From Roseibacillus sp. (GTDB lineage Bacteria > Verrucomicrobiota > Verrucomicrobiia > Verrucomicrobiales > Akkermansiaceae), in NCBI GenBank assembly GCA_051251855.1, contig JBPOGI010000001.1, forward strand, positions 1,344,001 to 1,408,000: 64,000 bases of DNA, in the 5' to 3' direction. Below the pieces are notes generated by a model that saw nothing but the letters and a program-made list of their open reading frames with translations, had not been told where the DNA came from and ran no database searches. This document shows positions 6,568-60,886 of the stretch, in pieces; position 1 is the stretch's first letter; every line of letters begins with the position of its first letter. The translations under genes were made by a program, and so were the position numbers.

Positions 6568-7317
6568 ATGCTCCTTCTCGCCTCTATTGACGACCTCAAG
6601 CCTGAAAACAGCTACCTGATTAAGGGGCTCAAATCCTTTGAGGAAAAAACCACCCTGATTGGCTTCGCAGAACAGCTCATTGGATTCTTCAAAGCCTTCC
6701 ACAAGGCAAAGGGCCTCACCCCCCTCGAACACAACATCATCGCCGACCTCGAGAGTAAGCTTGGGCTCGACGTGAATCAGAACAAGAACGAAGACCCCAA
6801 GGACCTTCTTCGCACGATTCGGCACATGCTCTATGGCCACCAAACCATCTCAGGAGATCGAAGCGACAAAGAAATCACCCTCGATCACCAGGCACGAATA
6901 CAGATCCTACTCGCCAAACGCCTCGCCATTCACCGCGTCCCCCGCGAGATACGAGAATCCACATTGCAACGTCCCCTGCCCGAACTCGAAAAACTCCTCA
7001 TCCTCCCCATCGAGAACCTCAAGAGCGAACTGCTCCAATCTCCTCCAATCAAACCCAGCATAGTTGAACTCGACCGCAAACCCAACAGCCTCCTTGAGGG
7101 CCGTGCCCGCAGCGTTCTCCGTGTCCCTCTCACCCGAAACGCCGGGGATATTTTTCTCGAGCTCAACGAAATCAAAGCCAAACAACACCTCAAAGCACCT
7201 TCCATCAAACTGGAAGCGGTCGAACTCCTCATCGAGTATCTCTTCGAGCTCCAGCCCGACTCCAAGGAAGTGCAGAAGATTCGCTCCTTGTTGGAGAAAG
7301 CCAGCAAGGAGTCTTAA
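6568..7317 (+). CDS. Hypothetical protein divergent from the AAA ATPase cluster
   Basis: 249-aa ORF; no motif recognised. Confidence 0.6.
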   Translation: MLLLASIDDLKPENSYLIKGLKSFEEKTTLIGFAEQLIGFFKAFHKAKGLTPLEHNIIADLESKLGLDVNQNKNEDPKDLLRTIRHMLYGHQTISGDRSDKEITLDHQARIQILLAKRLAIHRVPREIRESTLQRPLPELEKLLILPIENLKSELLQSPPIKPSIVELDRKPNSLLEGRARSVLRVPLTRNAGDIFLELNEIKAKQHLKAPSIKLEAVELLIEYLFELQPDSKEVQKIRSLLEKASKES

Positions 7318-7429
7318 CAAAGGAGAGATTGCAGGCTCTCGCTCTTCCAGCTGAAAGCGCCCAAAGCTATACTACTAGCGTGAAAGAGCCGCTCACCTCA
7401 GCTTCTGTTTCACCAACCTAGACCACTCC

Positions 7430-8536
7430 ATGTCGACAACAAACGAAGCCCCTTTTTCTCCTCTCCAAGCCTTCCTTGAAAGCGAGGGCATCTTATTCGA
7501 ACATCCATCCCTCATCGAATCTCGTTTTCACGAAGAAATGGGTGAAGAATTATTCGAAGAATTCTACCAAGCGGAAGACAGCTTCATTGCCGGGAGAACT
7601 TCTCTCGAAGGGCTCTTCAGCATCCCTCAGACGAAGTCCCAACTTCATACTCTCTTCAGCCGCCAGAGCTACACCCTGAAGACTTGCTCCGAATGGCTCA
7701 CCGAGAAAGTCGAACAGCTACCCCCAGAACAACGCGAGCACATAACGGAATTGGGGTGCGCCACCGGCCTTCTCTCCAAATGGCTCAAAATCCAATTTCC
7801 TCACAGCCAGATCACTGGCCTAGACCGCAGCCCTGAATTCATCGAAATCGCGAGAGAGTCAGCCCCAGACTGTCACTTCATCGAATGGGACTATTCCTGC
7901 GGTAGTCCGCCCGAGGAGCTTCAACCCGCGACCGTCACGATCTCAGCCCTCGGAATCGACTTCTCCCTGAGACAAGATGAAATTTCAATCGAGCAAACCG
8001 ACCCCCCCTATCGCAAAGCCGATTCTTACGAATGGAGATACGAAGAGGCTAAGCGCATTTTGAAGTATTGGCGGGCCTCATGCGCCGAGGGAGCCACACT
8101 CCACACCATCCTCCGCGTCCCTCAACTCATTCACCTCCTTCCCTTTATTGATGCAGCTCAAGATGCCGGTTGGCAACTCGACCTCAAATCATCCGAGAAA
8201 GTCAAAATTGAAGACCCCTACGGTGAAGATGAAGTCATGCCCGGGCTCTGCTTCAAAGCGGTTCAAATCGAAACGTCACCAACCCGTATTCCCGAAGAAC
8301 GAGTGACCGGGTTCTGGATCTCTGACAGCATCGAAACAACCTTTCAAAACATTGAAGCCAGAGAGGTCTACAATCAACTCAAAGACGGAGTGGTCACCTC
8401 ACGAAAGGAGCAGGCATACGCAGATGGCACGACTAAGGTCATCATCGAGAAAACGTTCGGAACCTTCCGCATCCGATACAGCTACACCAGCACCGAATAC
8501 GCCGAGCTCGAGTTCCTTCCTCTCTTGCAGTTGTGA
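7430..8536 (+). CDS. Class I SAM-dependent methyltransferase
   Basis: ITELGCATG motif I followed by ITGLDRS. Confidence 0.75.
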   Translation: MSTTNEAPFSPLQAFLESEGILFEHPSLIESRFHEEMGEELFEEFYQAEDSFIAGRTSLEGLFSIPQTKSQLHTLFSRQSYTLKTCSEWLTEKVEQLPPEQREHITELGCATGLLSKWLKIQFPHSQITGLDRSPEFIEIARESAPDCHFIEWDYSCGSPPEELQPATVTISALGIDFSLRQDEISIEQTDPPYRKADSYEWRYEEAKRILKYWRASCAEGATLHTILRVPQLIHLLPFIDAAQDAGWQLDLKSSEKVKIEDPYGEDEVMPGLCFKAVQIETSPTRIPEERVTGFWISDSIETTFQNIEAREVYNQLKDGVVTSRKEQAYADGTTKVIIEKTFGTFRIRYSYTSTEYAELEFLPLLQL

Positions 8537-47507: not shown

Positions 47508-47550
47508 TTGTGAAATTTTTCACAAGCTCAGTTTGTGAAATTTTTCACAA
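47508..47550. promoter_or_regulatory. Two identical palindromic operators (Rex-type; also fits CRP family)
   Basis: TTGTGAAATTTTTCACAA at 47508-47525 and 47533-47550, just upstream of actA. Confidence 0.8.
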
Positions 47551-47800
47551 AGTTTGTGACAGCCCGAAAGAGTGTCCTCGTTCGTGCTGCGCGGACGGTG
47601 TAAGACCCAATCGAACCTTCACGCAACTGCTTTCTGCAAAAAAGTCTGACTGTGAGATCGAGTCTCAATAACAAGTGGATTTGGGAGTAATTTTAGTCCC
47701 GAATCAGAGTCCACTCTTCGAGCCCTTTCAAGGAACCTCTATTAGTCTGCCTTCTTCATAAGGATCGATGTCAGCGAAAGAACAACACCTGCGGCAGGTC

Positions 47801-48847
47801 CTATCTTCCCCGACGCCCTCGCCCTGGTTTCTCGTCGATGACCCCGTCTCCATCCCGATCCTCGCCGTAAGGAATCTCATTCTTAAAGTGGACCCCCTTG
47901 CGGCGCCCTTCCTGAACATGCTCGCGATAGACCTTGCGCTGCTCAGCCTTTGCAAAGACTGCGTTCGCCTTTTCCAGAGCCTTCTTTAATTCTCCACTCG
48001 TCGCTGAGAGAGAGAATTCACCCAAAACCTTTCCTTCTTGGCCAAAAGCATCTGCCTGAATCACAAAATACCCTGCCTGAGACTTCTCCCCTGCCACCAA
48101 TTCAGCCCAATCAGCATCCGAACTCTTTTCCGCAAAATCATGATGAAAACGCCCCACAACCTCGGAATCATTAAGAACCGCCTGCAACACCTTGGTTACT
48201 CGCCTACGCTCCTCTTTGCTTGATACAGTCAAGAGCAAGAGCCGTTGGTCTCCCGAAGCCACATTGAGCGCCTGCCGTGAGGTATGAAAGTCCTGAACGA
48301 CGGCTTCACTGGCAGCTCCCTTAGCTCGGTAGTCTCCCGCTATTTTCTTCAAAACCGTGATGAGAGCCTCAGGATCATCGGCAGCCCCTCCTCGACGTCC
48401 TAACAACGAACTCGGGCCACGGCCACTTTTCGAGAGTCGCGTTTCACCATCAGGAGCAAGAATACAAAAAGCGGTATTCGCAAAGGCTCCTCTCAAGAAA
48501 GTGCGAACCATCTCTTGATGCTTCTCGGACTCATAAGATTCCAAGCGAACACACACGAAGTCGCGACTGGAGGCGATAAAGTCATCTTGCGAGAACAAAC
48601 TGTTCTGCGTAGCGGTATAGCCCGGTCAGAAAACCCCAGGGATGCCATTACAAGTTGCCGCTGCAGCCATAAAAAATATCGGCCGCTGGGAACGCTTGGC
48701 CTCAGCCAAAGCCGAATCCCAAGTAGTATACCAAGCCACCCCTGGTGCGCCTACAGCCTGAGGCGAGGCCGTCAGGTCCTCTGGACGCGGGCCTTGCGAG
48801 AAAACAAGTGCACTACTACTGAATAGAAGGAAAAATATTCTTTTCAT
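47801..48847 (-). CDS. Exported thioredoxin-like protein with in-frame UGA (candidate selenoprotein, 348 aa)
   Basis: Track ORFs 48626..48928 and 47801..48598 share a frame and are separated only by TGA 48626-48628: CNGIPGVF*PGYTATQNSLFSQDDF. Confidence 0.7.
48589..48608 (-). promoter_or_regulatory. Candidate SECIS hairpin
   Basis: GC-AGAACA-GUU-UGUUCU-C-GC; G-initiated loop 26 nt after the UGA. Confidence 0.5.
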
Positions 48848-48938
48848 CACTCCTACTAACCCCGCCTTTCCAAGAGAGTCGCGCTGATTCTTGTTAAGAA
48901 TCGGACATACACTCCTCACTCTCGCCACCCCTCAGCTT

Positions 48939-56454: not shown

Positions 56455-58158
56455 ATGACTGGAGCGACCGACGAAGAGCTGATCGAGCACTGGAAAAAGG
56501 AGCCCGCGCCTTTGCTCCCCCTTTTGCACGCTTTTCATGATCGGGATGGCTATCTCTCTGATGACGCCTTGCGCGCAGTCTCGGAAGGCCTCAAGACTCC
56601 CTTGGCCGATCTCTTTGGGACCGTTACGTTCTACCATCACTTCTCAAGAACACCCGGTGGCTTGGAAGCCCCTCGCGTCTGTACTGGAAACATTTGTTGC
56701 TTCCACGGTGGAAACGAAATCCTCGCCACTCTGAAAGCCCAGGGCCAAGCGGCCAGCGCCATGCCTTGCAGCGGACGTTGTGATGGCCCCGTCCCCGTCT
56801 TGCAAGGGCACACCACTCTCATCGGAACCTCTGCAGATAATCTGACCCCGACACCCAGCGCAGTCCCAGTCGCCAATCCGGGCGGTATCGAGGAATGCGT
56901 TTTCGCAAAAATCCGCGAGCCACAACGCAACACCCTCGACGGCTATCGTAACTCAGGCGGATTCGAAGCTTTAACAAATGCTCTCAAGGGCACACCCGAG
57001 CAAGTCATCGAGACCGTCACCGCCAGCAAACTCGCAGGACGTGGTGGAGCAGGCTTCCCAACCGGAATCAAATGGAAGGCCGTCGCCGACGCTCCCGGAG
57101 ACCCCAAATCCATTGTCTGCAACGCGGACGAAGGAGAACCCGGCTGCTTCAAGGACCGCGCAGTGATGGATTACGATCCCTATGCTCTGTTAGAAGGTAT
57201 GATTATCGCCGGATTCGCCACTGGAGCACCACAAGGTTTTGTCTATCTGCGGTACGAGTATCCCGAGACCAACGAACTTTTAGAGCAAGCAATCCTCGAC
57301 CTGAATGCAGGTGGACTACTCGGAGAAAACATCTTGGACAGCGGGTTCACCTTCCAACTCTACGTCCGCCGCGGAGCTGGCGCCTACATCTGTGGTGAGG
57401 AAGGCTCTCTTCTGAATAGCCTAGAAGGCAAACACCCTTTCCCTCGCAACAAGCCACCCTTCCCCGTCACTCACGGCTTTAACAACAAGCCCACCGTCGT
57501 CAACAACGTCGAAACCCTCGCCTCCATCCCTCCCATTCTCGTGAACGGGGCCGACTGGTATCGCGGACTCGGCTCCGGCGAACATCCCGGCACCAAACTT
57601 ATCAGCCTTTCCGGAGATATCGAACGTCCAGGTAACTACGAGGTGCCCATTGGTCTTCCACTCAAAACCCTCCTCTACGAATGGGCTGGCGGACCAAAAG
57701 ACGGTCGCTCCATCCAAGCGGTCACCATGGCCGGTCTTTCAGGGGGCTTCCTTGGACATCAAGTTCTCGACGATATCACTTTGGACGAACCCTGCATCCG
57801 CTCTCACGGTTCTTTCCTAGGTGCTGGGGGAATCATGGTCTTCGATGACACCCGCGACATAGTTCAGGTTGCTCATGATGCCATGGCTTTCTTTGCGCAC
57901 GAAAGCTGCGGCAAGTGTTTCCCCTGCCGCATCGGAACTCAGCGCCTCACCGAGCGTCTCGACGACCAAATCGTCCAGACCAAGCCCGAGGCATGGAAAG
58001 CCGAGGTCAACGACATCGGCGACGTCATGAAAGCGACCAGCGCCTGCGGCTTAGGTATGGCAGCCCCTAATGTGACCGAAAGCCTCCTCAAATACTTTCC
58101 CGAAGAAGTGGAACGAAGCCATCTAAAAACTGATAGCGAACAACCAGCCTTGACGTAG
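56455..58158 (+). CDS. Fused NuoE/NuoF-like diaphorase subunit of NAD-linked formate dehydrogenase
   Basis: CTGNIC...CSGRC, GRGGAGFP, NADEGEPG, YICGEE, ESCGKCFPC...C. Confidence 0.92.
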   Translation: MTGATDEELIEHWKKEPAPLLPLLHAFHDRDGYLSDDALRAVSEGLKTPLADLFGTVTFYHHFSRTPGGLEAPRVCTGNICCFHGGNEILATLKAQGQAASAMPCSGRCDGPVPVLQGHTTLIGTSADNLTPTPSAVPVANPGGIEECVFAKIREPQRNTLDGYRNSGGFEALTNALKGTPEQVIETVTASKLAGRGGAGFPTGIKWKAVADAPGDPKSIVCNADEGEPGCFKDRAVMDYDPYALLEGMIIAGFATGAPQGFVYLRYEYPETNELLEQAILDLNAGGLLGENILDSGFTFQLYVRRGAGAYICGEEGSLLNSLEGKHPFPRNKPPFPVTHGFNNKPTVVNNVETLASIPPILVNGADWYRGLGSGEHPGTKLISLSGDIERPGNYEVPIGLPLKTLLYEWAGGPKDGRSIQAVTMAGLSGGFLGHQVLDDITLDEPCIRSHGSFLGAGGIMVFDDTRDIVQVAHDAMAFFAHESCGKCFPCRIGTQRLTERLDDQIVQTKPEAWKAEVNDIGDVMKATSACGLGMAAPNVTESLLKYFPEEVERSHLKTDSEQPALT

Positions 58159-58168
58159 ATTTTAAGAA

Positions 58169-60886
58169 ATGACCATGCAACAATTGACGATGACCATCGA
58201 TGGTCAGGAAGTCTCCTTCTCCGAAGGCCAAACTATTTATGAGGTCGCGACCCAGATGGGGAAAGACGTCCCCACTCTTTGCTACGACGACCGCCTCGAA
58301 GCCTTTGGCGGCTGCCGCCTTTGTGTCGTGGAAGTGGAAGGTATCCGCAACCCCGTCGCCTCCTGCACCACCAAAGCCACCGCCGGCATGGTAGTGAAGA
58401 CCGCTCCTCAAAAAATCGAGAAATATCGCAAGACTCTTCTCGAGATGGTCAACTCAGAGAATCCCGAGTTAGAGGTCAGCCCTCTTCGAGGATACGCCAG
58501 TCAGCAACTCACCGGGCTGGTCAATCGTTACGATGCCAATCAGGGACGCTTCAAAGGAAAGACTTCTGGAACCAGTAACAAAAAAGATCTCAACCCTTTC
58601 ATCCTGCGCGACTACAACCTCTGCATCTCTTGCTACCGCTGTGTGAGAGTTTGTTCAGAGCAAGAAGGTGATTACGCCATCAGCGTGATGAACCGTGGTT
58701 TCGACACCCAAATCACCACCGAGTTTGGCAACGACCTACGTGACTCCGATTGCACCTTCTGCGGCCAATGCGTGCAGACCTGCCCTACTGGAGCTCTTGC
58801 CGACAAGAAAGCTCTCCGAGACGAGGACACTCCAGGCGAAGTCAAGAAGACGCGCACCGTCTGCCCTTTCTGCGCTGTCGGTTGCTCCATCGACCTGATG
58901 AGCAAAAACGACAAGATTGTCGGAGCACAGCCCGCCATGGACGGCCCAGCCAACAAAGGAGCACTCTGCATCAAAGGACAATTCACTTACGACTTCATTC
59001 AACACGAAGACCGCCTCAAGAAGCCTCTTATCAAACAAGCGGATGGCAGCTTTAAGGAAGTGGAATGGGATGAAGCTTTGAAAAAGGCAGCCGAAGGCTT
59101 TGCTAAAGCCAAAGATAAATACGGCCGCCATAGTATCTTCGGTATCGCCTCCGGTCGCGCTCCTCACGAGGCCGCCTACACGATGCAGAAGTTCATTCGA
59201 GCCGGCTTCGGGACGCATCATATCGATAACTGTTCGCGTGCTTGACACGCTCCCACGGTCGCCGGTCTGGCGGCCCAAATCGGAAGAGGCGCAATGTCCA
59301 ATCCTCTGGAGGACATGCAAAAGCCCGACACTATTTTTGCTATCGGCACCAATATGACCGAGTGCCACCCCGTCGCCGCGACAGGACTCAAAAAAGCACT
59401 CACTCAAGGAGCCAAGCTCATTGTCGCCGACCCGCGCAAAACGCGCTTGGCGAAGTTGGCCCATCTTCACTTGCCCATTCGGGTCGGTTCAGATGTCGCC
59501 CTTCTCCTCGGCATGGCTCACGTGATTGTCCGTGAAGGTCTCGCCGACACTGAGTTCATCGAAGAGCGAACCACCAAGTTCGAAGACTTTGCCGAACACC
59601 TCAAAGAGTTCACTCCCGAGTGGGCCTCAGAAATCTGTGAATGCCCGGCCGCCGATATCGAGCAAGCCGCCATTTGGTATGGCCAAGCCGACCGCGGAGC
59701 CATCTATTATACCCTCGGAATCACGGAGCACATTTGTGGTGTTGATAACGTACAATCTCTCTGCAACCTCGCCCTCATGACCGGAAACCTCGGTCGCGTA
59801 GGAACAGGCATCAACCCCATGCGTGGCCAGAATAATATCCAGGGTGCCGGAGACTGCGGGGCCGTCCCTGCTAACTACCCTGGGTTCCAACCTGTCAAAG
59901 ATGAGAAATTCCAAAAGAAGTTTGCTGAACTCTATCAGCAGCCTGACATGGACCTCGGCAATCACATGACCAAGGTCACCGCTCTCAACTTGTGCGGCGC
60001 CGAGGAGAACGGAATTCACGCCATGCTCATCAATGGCGAAAACACCGTCGTTACCGACCCCGATCGCAAGCACTGCGAACACGCTCTCAAATCTCTCGAT
60101 CACCTCGTGGTAGTCGACATTTTCCTAACAGAAACCGCTCAACTCGCCGATGTCGTGCTCCCCGCTTCGGCTTGGGGTGAGACCGATGGCGTGCAGGCCA
60201 ATACCGAACGCCGGGTGCAACGACTTCGCAAAGCTGTCCCCAGCTACGGAGATTCGATGCCGGACTGGTGGATTCTTTCAGGCATTGCCAAAGAACTCGG
60301 CATCCCCGGGTTCGAATACGAAAGCGCAAAGGACGTCTTCAACGAACTCTGTTCACTAAGCCCCATCTATGCCGGACTCGACTGGGACATCATCGGAGAC
60401 GGCGAATACCAGTGGCCAGTGCCCCACAAAGGACACCCCGGCACGCCTATGCTGCATGAGAACGAATTCAAAGACGGTAAACCTGGCCTCTTCCGCCTGA
60501 TAGGCTACCGCGACCCAGCAGAAGTCATTGATGCCGACTACCCCGTTTGGCTCACGACCGGACGCCGACTCGAAGCCTATCACACTCGCACTCAAACTGG
60601 TCGGGCCTCAGGAATCGACTACCTTCTTTCCCGCGAAACCCTCGAAGTCCACCCTGACGACGCGCGCGATTGGGGCCTCAGCGACGGAAGCCGAGTTAAG
60701 ATGGCGAGCCGCCGAGGCGAGATTGAAGTCGAAGTGGAAGTCACCACCCAAAGCCCACGTGGCACCGTCTTCACCTCCTTTAGCTTCGCTGACACCCAGG
60801 TCAACATCCTCACCGGTTCAGGTTACGATCCCGTCACCCAGACCGCCGAGTTAAAGGTCTGCCCCGTGCGTATCACGCCGGTCTAG
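58169..60886 (+). CDS. Selenocysteine-containing formate dehydrogenase alpha subunit, 905 aa, Sec359
   Basis: Two track ORFs are in frame across TGA 59243-59245: IDNCSRA*HAPTV matches the FdhF C-x-R-x-U-H site; MRGQNN present. Confidence 0.93.
59257..59275 (+). promoter_or_regulatory. SECIS element
   Basis: GGUCGCC-GGUCU-GGCGGCC, starting after an 11-nt spacer from the UGA, like E. coli fdhF. Confidence 0.88.

Follow-up and report, generated by a model that had tools for sequence, protein, structure and literature searches.

The Roseibacillus gene described here almost certainly encodes a thioredoxin-like selenoprotein, which is probably exported. Comparison across its homologues indicates that selenocysteine (Sec) is inserted at codon 74, an in-frame UGA, and SelB would bind a hairpin 24 nt past it. 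The gene lies on the minus strand (48847→47801; the strand was missing from the earlier note) of the window, by which we mean the whole stretch of 64,000 nucleotides that was analyzed. Its features are as follows.

47801..48847, minus strand: complete coding sequence of 348 codons (348 aa, codon 74 being Sec); TGA is the sole in-frame break
48797..48847, minus strand: probable signal peptide, residues 1–17 (MKRIFFLLFSSSALVFS, then Q), read from the sequence
48317..48751, minus strand: predicted thioredoxin-fold domain 1, residues ~33–177, DsbD-gamma/DsbH/Thioredoxin_7-like, carrying the redox site
48650..48652, minus strand: Cys66 (TGT), on a hairpin insert between strand 1 and the active-site helix according to DSSP of the model
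48626..48628, minus strand: UGA codon 74, predicted to be read as selenocysteine (TGA in 41/41 and 37/37 sites, TGT or TGC in 26/26 non-TGA matches)
48589..48608, minus strand: predicted bacterial SECIS (covariation, frozen synonymous codons, conserved loop G and U)
47951..48301, minus strand: predicted thioredoxin-fold domain 2, residues ~183–299, without a Cys motif
47834..47860, minus strand: DRDGDGVID loop of the Dx[DN]xDG type, present in 33 of 39 aligned proteins and followed by an Arg/Gly-rich tail
47787..47799, minus strand: weak terminator-like hairpin directly past the stop, not above chance (2 sites observed, 2.4 expected)

Results

Gene layout

The frame starts with ATG at 48847, contains a lone TGA at 48628–48626 and ends with TAG at 47803–47801. 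Translation table 11 cuts it into two ORFs, 48626–48928 and 47801–48598; reading of the frame confirmed the earlier proposal that both belong to a single frame broken by UGA at codon 74. The peptides quoted in support of a signal peptide and a thioredoxin-like start are found in this joined frame. With TGA read through, the redox motif is C66-NGIPGVF-U74-PGY, which bears out the C-x7-U spacing. Of the 35 aligned proteins whose start is usable, 34 have an N-terminal hydrophobic stretch, as judged by a crude hydropathy test. The DRDGDGVID loop may be a calcium site, in keeping with its Dx[DN]xDG-type motif. Some homologues (L038, L045, L050 and protein P0165) have extra EF-hand-like repeats ahead of domain 1.

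Conservation of the UGA codon

We compared 41 genome loci from Verrucomicrobiota and Planctomycetota at 33–70% identity. Homology flanks the column on both sides in 40 of them, and the remaining locus stops before the column. TGA occupied the column in all 41 sites, i.e., the 40 column-covering loci and a second copy in L040. Among 251 sampled Planctomycetota genomes, 37 genes from 32 genomes were inspected and all carried TGA (37/37), with C-x7-U spacing in 34, C-x8-U in two and C-x3-U in one. In Pirellulaceae (301 genomes), 63 genomes gave 86 matches, of which 80 had a TGA, counted without checking its position; the other six are fragments missing the column. A metagenome pattern scan that permitted TGT, TGC or TGG, at a fixed spacing that lets gapped forms escape, returned 26 non-TGA loci. 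All are homologues, 16 with TGT and 10 with TGC. The earlier note had proposed looking for homologues with TGA or Cys and for conservation on both sides, and both were found. Furthermore, C-x7-C occurs in five protein clusters.

One might read the UGA as a true stop, separating two genes or marking a pseudogene, or as a Trp codon. In agreement with this, databases keep the halves apart, 119 of 120 among the protein matches listed cover 65–77% of the query, and the Roseibacillus persicicus entry has 265 aa. Moreover, two of the 37 Planctomycetota copies (L135 and L140) are broken further downstream, and Trp stands at this position in proteins P0012 and P0290. However, two proteins from the same 90% cluster as P0012 terminate exactly at the column, and we hence infer that the gene caller read UGA as Trp. 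TGG was found in none of the 26 loci from the scan that permitted it, and TAA, TAG and TGG were absent from the column in every inspected site. Several homologous genes use TGA as their own terminal stop; UGA is therefore an ordinary stop in these organisms, which argues against Trp. The stop or Trp reading thus appears already contradicted by the comparative data, and we consider it barely credible. None of the findings that the earlier note had named as fatal to Sec, namely Trp or another residue at the site, TAA or TAG there, or a genome devoid of Sec machinery, emerged.

A quick tree of 67 proteins, midpoint-drawn, contained two well-supported subfamilies. Placing the Cys label on it needed four changes, three of them forced by starred branches; the tree, having no outgroup, is compatible with several Sec-to-Cys conversions.

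The predicted SECIS hairpin

A hairpin with a G-initiated loop had been announced behind the UGA and is present there as GCAGAACA-GUU-UGUUCUCGC. Its core stem pairs 48605–48602 with 48596–48593, and the loop AGUUU (48601–48597) lies 24 nt past the UGA. As support for Sec, this hairpin fails when taken alone and succeeds through its conservation across homologues. In isolation it does not exceed chance (z of −0.21 for 60 nt, −0.63 for 50 nt and +1.09 for 80 nt), and a relaxed SECIS-like hairpin also stands behind 265 of 1523 (17%) ordinary TGA-ended long frames of the same genome. In 62 distinct sites, the distance from UGA to loop is 24 nt, and the loop G and U never vary (62/62), even though the codon at this place switches among Ser, Gly and Arg. 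We also compiled a diversity set of 52 distinct sites, made up of 21 of the 62 and 32 Planctomycetota sites with one duplicate. In this set 90% of cells are paired, five of six pairs are altered on both sides, and G29 and U30 are more than 90% conserved, not invariant. Covariation reached 0.611, compared with at most 0.171 for slid partners as a control. Codons 80–85 use a single synonymous codon in 91–100% of cases, a top-codon share of 0.976 vs a mean of 0.505 at 135 other conserved codons. Finally, 84 of 93 Sec forms preserve the full core stem and GU loop, vs 2 of 18 Cys forms. Judged by these comparisons, the predicted hairpin is a bacterial SECIS: its pairs covary, synonymous codon choice is frozen along it, and it degenerates in Cys forms.

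According to PMC13188914, the bSECISearch consensus features a loop of 3–9 nt with G within the first two places, located 16–37 nt after the UGA, a stem of 4–16 bp and an energy of at most −7.5 kcal/mol. The in-ORF hairpin described here, with a loop of 3–5 nt starting with G then U, a distance of 24 nt from the UGA and a stem of 4–6 bp, fits this geometry. Its energy is borderline, with −5.5 to −7.0 kcal/mol for the upper hairpin and −10.5 kcal/mol for the 47 nt after the UGA.

Window positions 48590–48631, comprising UGA and SECIS, are an island of nucleotide conservation. They are the main stretch matched by contigs of other organisms, with 85% likeness in three runs.

Selenocysteine machinery and co-occurrence

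The Roseibacillus genome encodes selA, selB and selD, all above curated cut-offs, and selC as tRNA-SeC(tca), i.e., the complete set on which the earlier note had made its proposal depend; selD itself holds an in-frame TGA. The Sec formate dehydrogenase invoked as a sign of Sec usage in the window was also recovered: the gene at 58169–60886 has TGA at 59243 within SRA-U-HAP (U-H-x-P) and matches Pfam Molybdopterin. At 56455–60886 (plus strand), a NuoE/F-like gene is followed by this formate dehydrogenase alpha subunit, with the TGA at 59243 and a hairpin. The same layout is reported for planctomycete P1 in PMC4807772.

In 201 Verrucomicrobiales genomes, the gene was found in 23 of 62 selA-positive and in none of 139 selA-negative genomes, a count that dropped seven weak matches and whose independence is overstated by the kinship of the genomes. 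All 23 carriers have the full gene with one TGA and a selA above cut-off. Similarly, selA was matched in 39 of the 41 locus genomes, with two lacking a match, and in 31 of 32 Planctomycetota carriers against a background of 198 of 251 Planctomycetota genomes. In a single instance, a subfamily-B copy (L065; G377:C11:2946–3842 and 7009–8367) is separated from selA by ~3 kb, the two being on opposite strands.

Predicted fold and redox site

The structure model (pLDDT 90.0, pTM 0.88) features two tandem thioredoxin folds. The thioredoxin-like assignment of the earlier note thus stands for the fold, although not for a single domain. In the model, the active-site helix begins at Pro75 and Sec74 directly precedes it as U-P-G-Y. 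CxxC, UxxC and CxxU are absent from the helix start, and the only nearby Cys of the motif sits eight residues upstream. All 39 aligned proteins have Cys66, which is also retained in every Cys form inspected; one homologue, P0135, has lost both Cys66 and the site residue. From the model, Sec74 most probably takes the place of the first Cys, the attacking one, in a CxxC site that lacks its second Cys, the other Cys being carried on the insertion.

A reversed register, in which Cys66 attacks and Sec74 resolves within a CxxU site stretched by the insertion, is distinctly improbable. It draws on the alignments, as hhalign pairs Cys66, not Sec74, with the first residue of a UxxC protein and the Pfam Thioredoxin_7 match reaches only as far as Cys66; in both cases the spacing from strand 1 places Cys66 at the first Cys of CxxC. 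CxxU families are also common in the catalogue of PMC13188914. The model speaks against this register, since with a helix starting at Pro75 the Sec lies just before the helix and not in its first turn. Furthermore, the F/W-U-P context resembles W-C-x-P and W-C-P sites.

If Sec74 attacks, it might alternatively form a lasting mixed bond with clients, as in ERp44- or AGR-like capture, isomerization or sensing, with Cys66 being structural or bonded elsewhere. We regard such a monothiol-type selenoprotein as unlikely, because Cys66 is invariant with the same spacing kept in Cys forms, and because it disappears jointly with the site residue in P0135. A role as a peroxide reductase or as a metal or metalloid binder, rather than a disulfide oxidoreductase, is given a comparably low chance to the reversed register. 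In its favor, peroxidases have one catalytic Sec or Cys and a displaced resolving Cys, and Thr125, judged by eye, would take the usual thioredoxin cis-Pro place. Against this, no peroxiredoxin or GPx appeared among the 50 VIA-align matches listed, and the family has no TxxU or UxxT motif.

A PDB sequence search gave no match. The top Foldseek rows were QSOX1 oxidoreductase fragments, ERp44 and PDI (E of 2e-5 to 7e-4). Because whole-chain TM-scores were 0.21–0.28 with rmsd mostly 12–22 Å and identity ~10%, the predicted likeness to PDI and QSOX is one of two consecutive thioredoxin folds and not of a common arrangement.

Relation to known families

Among the proteins with scores shown, no model of NCBIfam (June 2026) or Pfam was matched at its cut-off; the best E over 39 members was 0.0008 for NCBIfam and 0.0001 for Pfam. 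The VPGUxxT thioredoxin-like (seleno)proteins NF041382/NF041383 likewise have a Thioredoxin_7-like start, a short pre-Sec insertion and UGA recoding, and are weakly matched by 22 of 39 members (best member E 0.0016). However, our gene scores 14.6 bits, where the cut-off is 350, and has C-x7-U-P-G instead of VPGUxxT. The CxxU-containing Trx7/PDZ domain (seleno)protein NF041199 also combines an exported Trx7-type domain with Sec; here, the family reaches a best E of 0.0004–0.004 (~13–19 bits, cut-off 300), lacks the PDZ domain and has x7 rather than x2. As a positive control, the known Trx7/PDZ selenoprotein of carrier genome L072 passes NF041199 at 373.7 bits. With a score of 9.2 vs a cut-off of 805, the gene is not a member of TsoB (NF045694; UxxxxU, rhodanese/DsbD fusion). 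In contrast to periplasmic thioredoxins of the DsbD-gamma/DsbH/DUF255 type (PDB 3f9u, 2ju5, 3ira), it has Sec instead of a CxxC site, along with an inserted Cys-bearing hairpin and a second thioredoxin domain.

Table 1 of PMC13188914, a 2026 review of 119 families in which several rows state no motif, does not contain C-x7-U. Passages on BSepDB (PMC13326102) and deep-Sep (PMC12013277) do not list it either. Going by these sources, the family is apparently uncatalogued; it might still figure as a candidate among the sequences of BSepDB, in bioRxiv supplements, or in the work of Deng et al. or of Haft and Tolstoy (2025).

Several other selenoprotein candidates came to light. L099:1414-2484 (plus strand) is an exported Trx7-like frame with an in-frame TGA in YCRGVY-U-PG (C-x4-U-PG) and no NCBIfam match at E 0.1; it may belong to a sister family in which the insertion is shorter. 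L073:2577-3824 (minus strand), also exported and Trx7-like with an in-frame TGA, reads GHPFGCT-U-NNG (CxU) and again had no NCBIfam match at E 0.1. L071:3601-4125 (minus strand) is a small lipoprotein-like UxxC thioredoxin, kin to the VPGUxxT models, far below their cut-offs. A crude scan of the Roseibacillus genome itself (G000) yielded seven further Sec candidates (C1:1812083, C6:461828, C8:303831, C11:42439, C11:99364, C1:1584110 and C9:31936). They comprise FQEVPG-U-GPC beside selA, an MsrA-like GMG-U-FWG, a peroxiredoxin-like TPG-U-IKQC and four W/T-U-xx-C thioredoxin-like sites.

Genomic neighborhood

As previously remarked, the gene lies just upstream of the ACIII operon on the same strand, its end 314 bases before actA (47486). 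This adjacency is probably incidental, since of 47 other loci only one has ACIII genes beside the family gene, and there a further gene intervenes. Two perfect TTGTGAAAAATTTCACAA palindromes directly upstream of actA (window 47508–47525 and 47533–47550) agree with the Rex consensus given in PMC2883068. The genome has seven perfect Rex-type sites and eight with one mismatch, vs one in the control, and holds a gene with a Rex N-terminal domain; both boxes are retained in L022. The predicted Rex boxes suggest NADH-sensed control of the ACIII/oxidase operon, which would thus seem to be under its own control. Around the homologous loci, we found no conserved neighbor hinting at a client or reductant.

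Discussion

Recoding in itself is ordinary among thioredoxin-fold bacterial selenoproteins; it is the motif and the two-domain layout that are unusual. Recoding is also the only well-supported part of our explanation, by sequence comparison. For the entire chain of events, we lean toward an exported disulfide oxidoreductase, combining sequence, model and analogy. After SelB-dependent insertion of Sec, the signal peptide would export the protein. Domain 1 would then set Sec74 before the active-site helix, in the place of the attacking Cys of thioredoxins, as the model supports. Sec74 might attack a disulfide or an oxidized thiol of a client, and Cys66 on the inserted hairpin might resolve the mixed bond, leaving a Cys66–Sec74 selenylsulfide that some reductant would reset. 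Such a dithiol role may be inferred from the retention of Cys66 in Cys forms and its joint loss in P0135. Client binding could finally fall to the Cys-free domain 2, in analogy to the a-b pairs of PDI and QSOX. Eukaryotic PDI-family a-b pairs, i.e., the QSOX1 oxidoreductase fragment, ERp44 and Mpd1p, similarly are secreted and join a redox thioredoxin domain to a Cys-free one. With TM-scores of at most 0.28 and ~10% identity, we treat this as an analogy of layout that does not imply kinship.

We may speculate, tentatively, that the gene represents a so far uncatalogued family of Planctomycetota and Verrucomicrobiota whose ancestor had Sec and whose redox site is of a new kind, in which an attacking Sec is resolved at a distance of eight residues by an upstream Cys on an inserted hairpin, next to a Cys-free second thioredoxin domain. 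Carriers were found in 63 of 301 Pirellulaceae, 32 of 251 Planctomycetota and 23 of 201 Verrucomicrobiales genomes searched, and the protein search returned 582 cluster representatives with an E of 0.001 or less. This points to a sizeable selenoprotein family that annotation has overlooked and of which databases hold pieces. Its two subfamilies supply an unusually clean covarying SECIS set. If our proposal is true, bacteria would possess in this family a selenium-based equivalent of PDI-type a-b proteins that works outside the cytoplasm. Sec and Cys versions both occur in nature and, together with cultured carriers, e.g., Roseibacillus persicicus (L024), offer a direct test of the benefit of selenium in extracytoplasmic redox chemistry.
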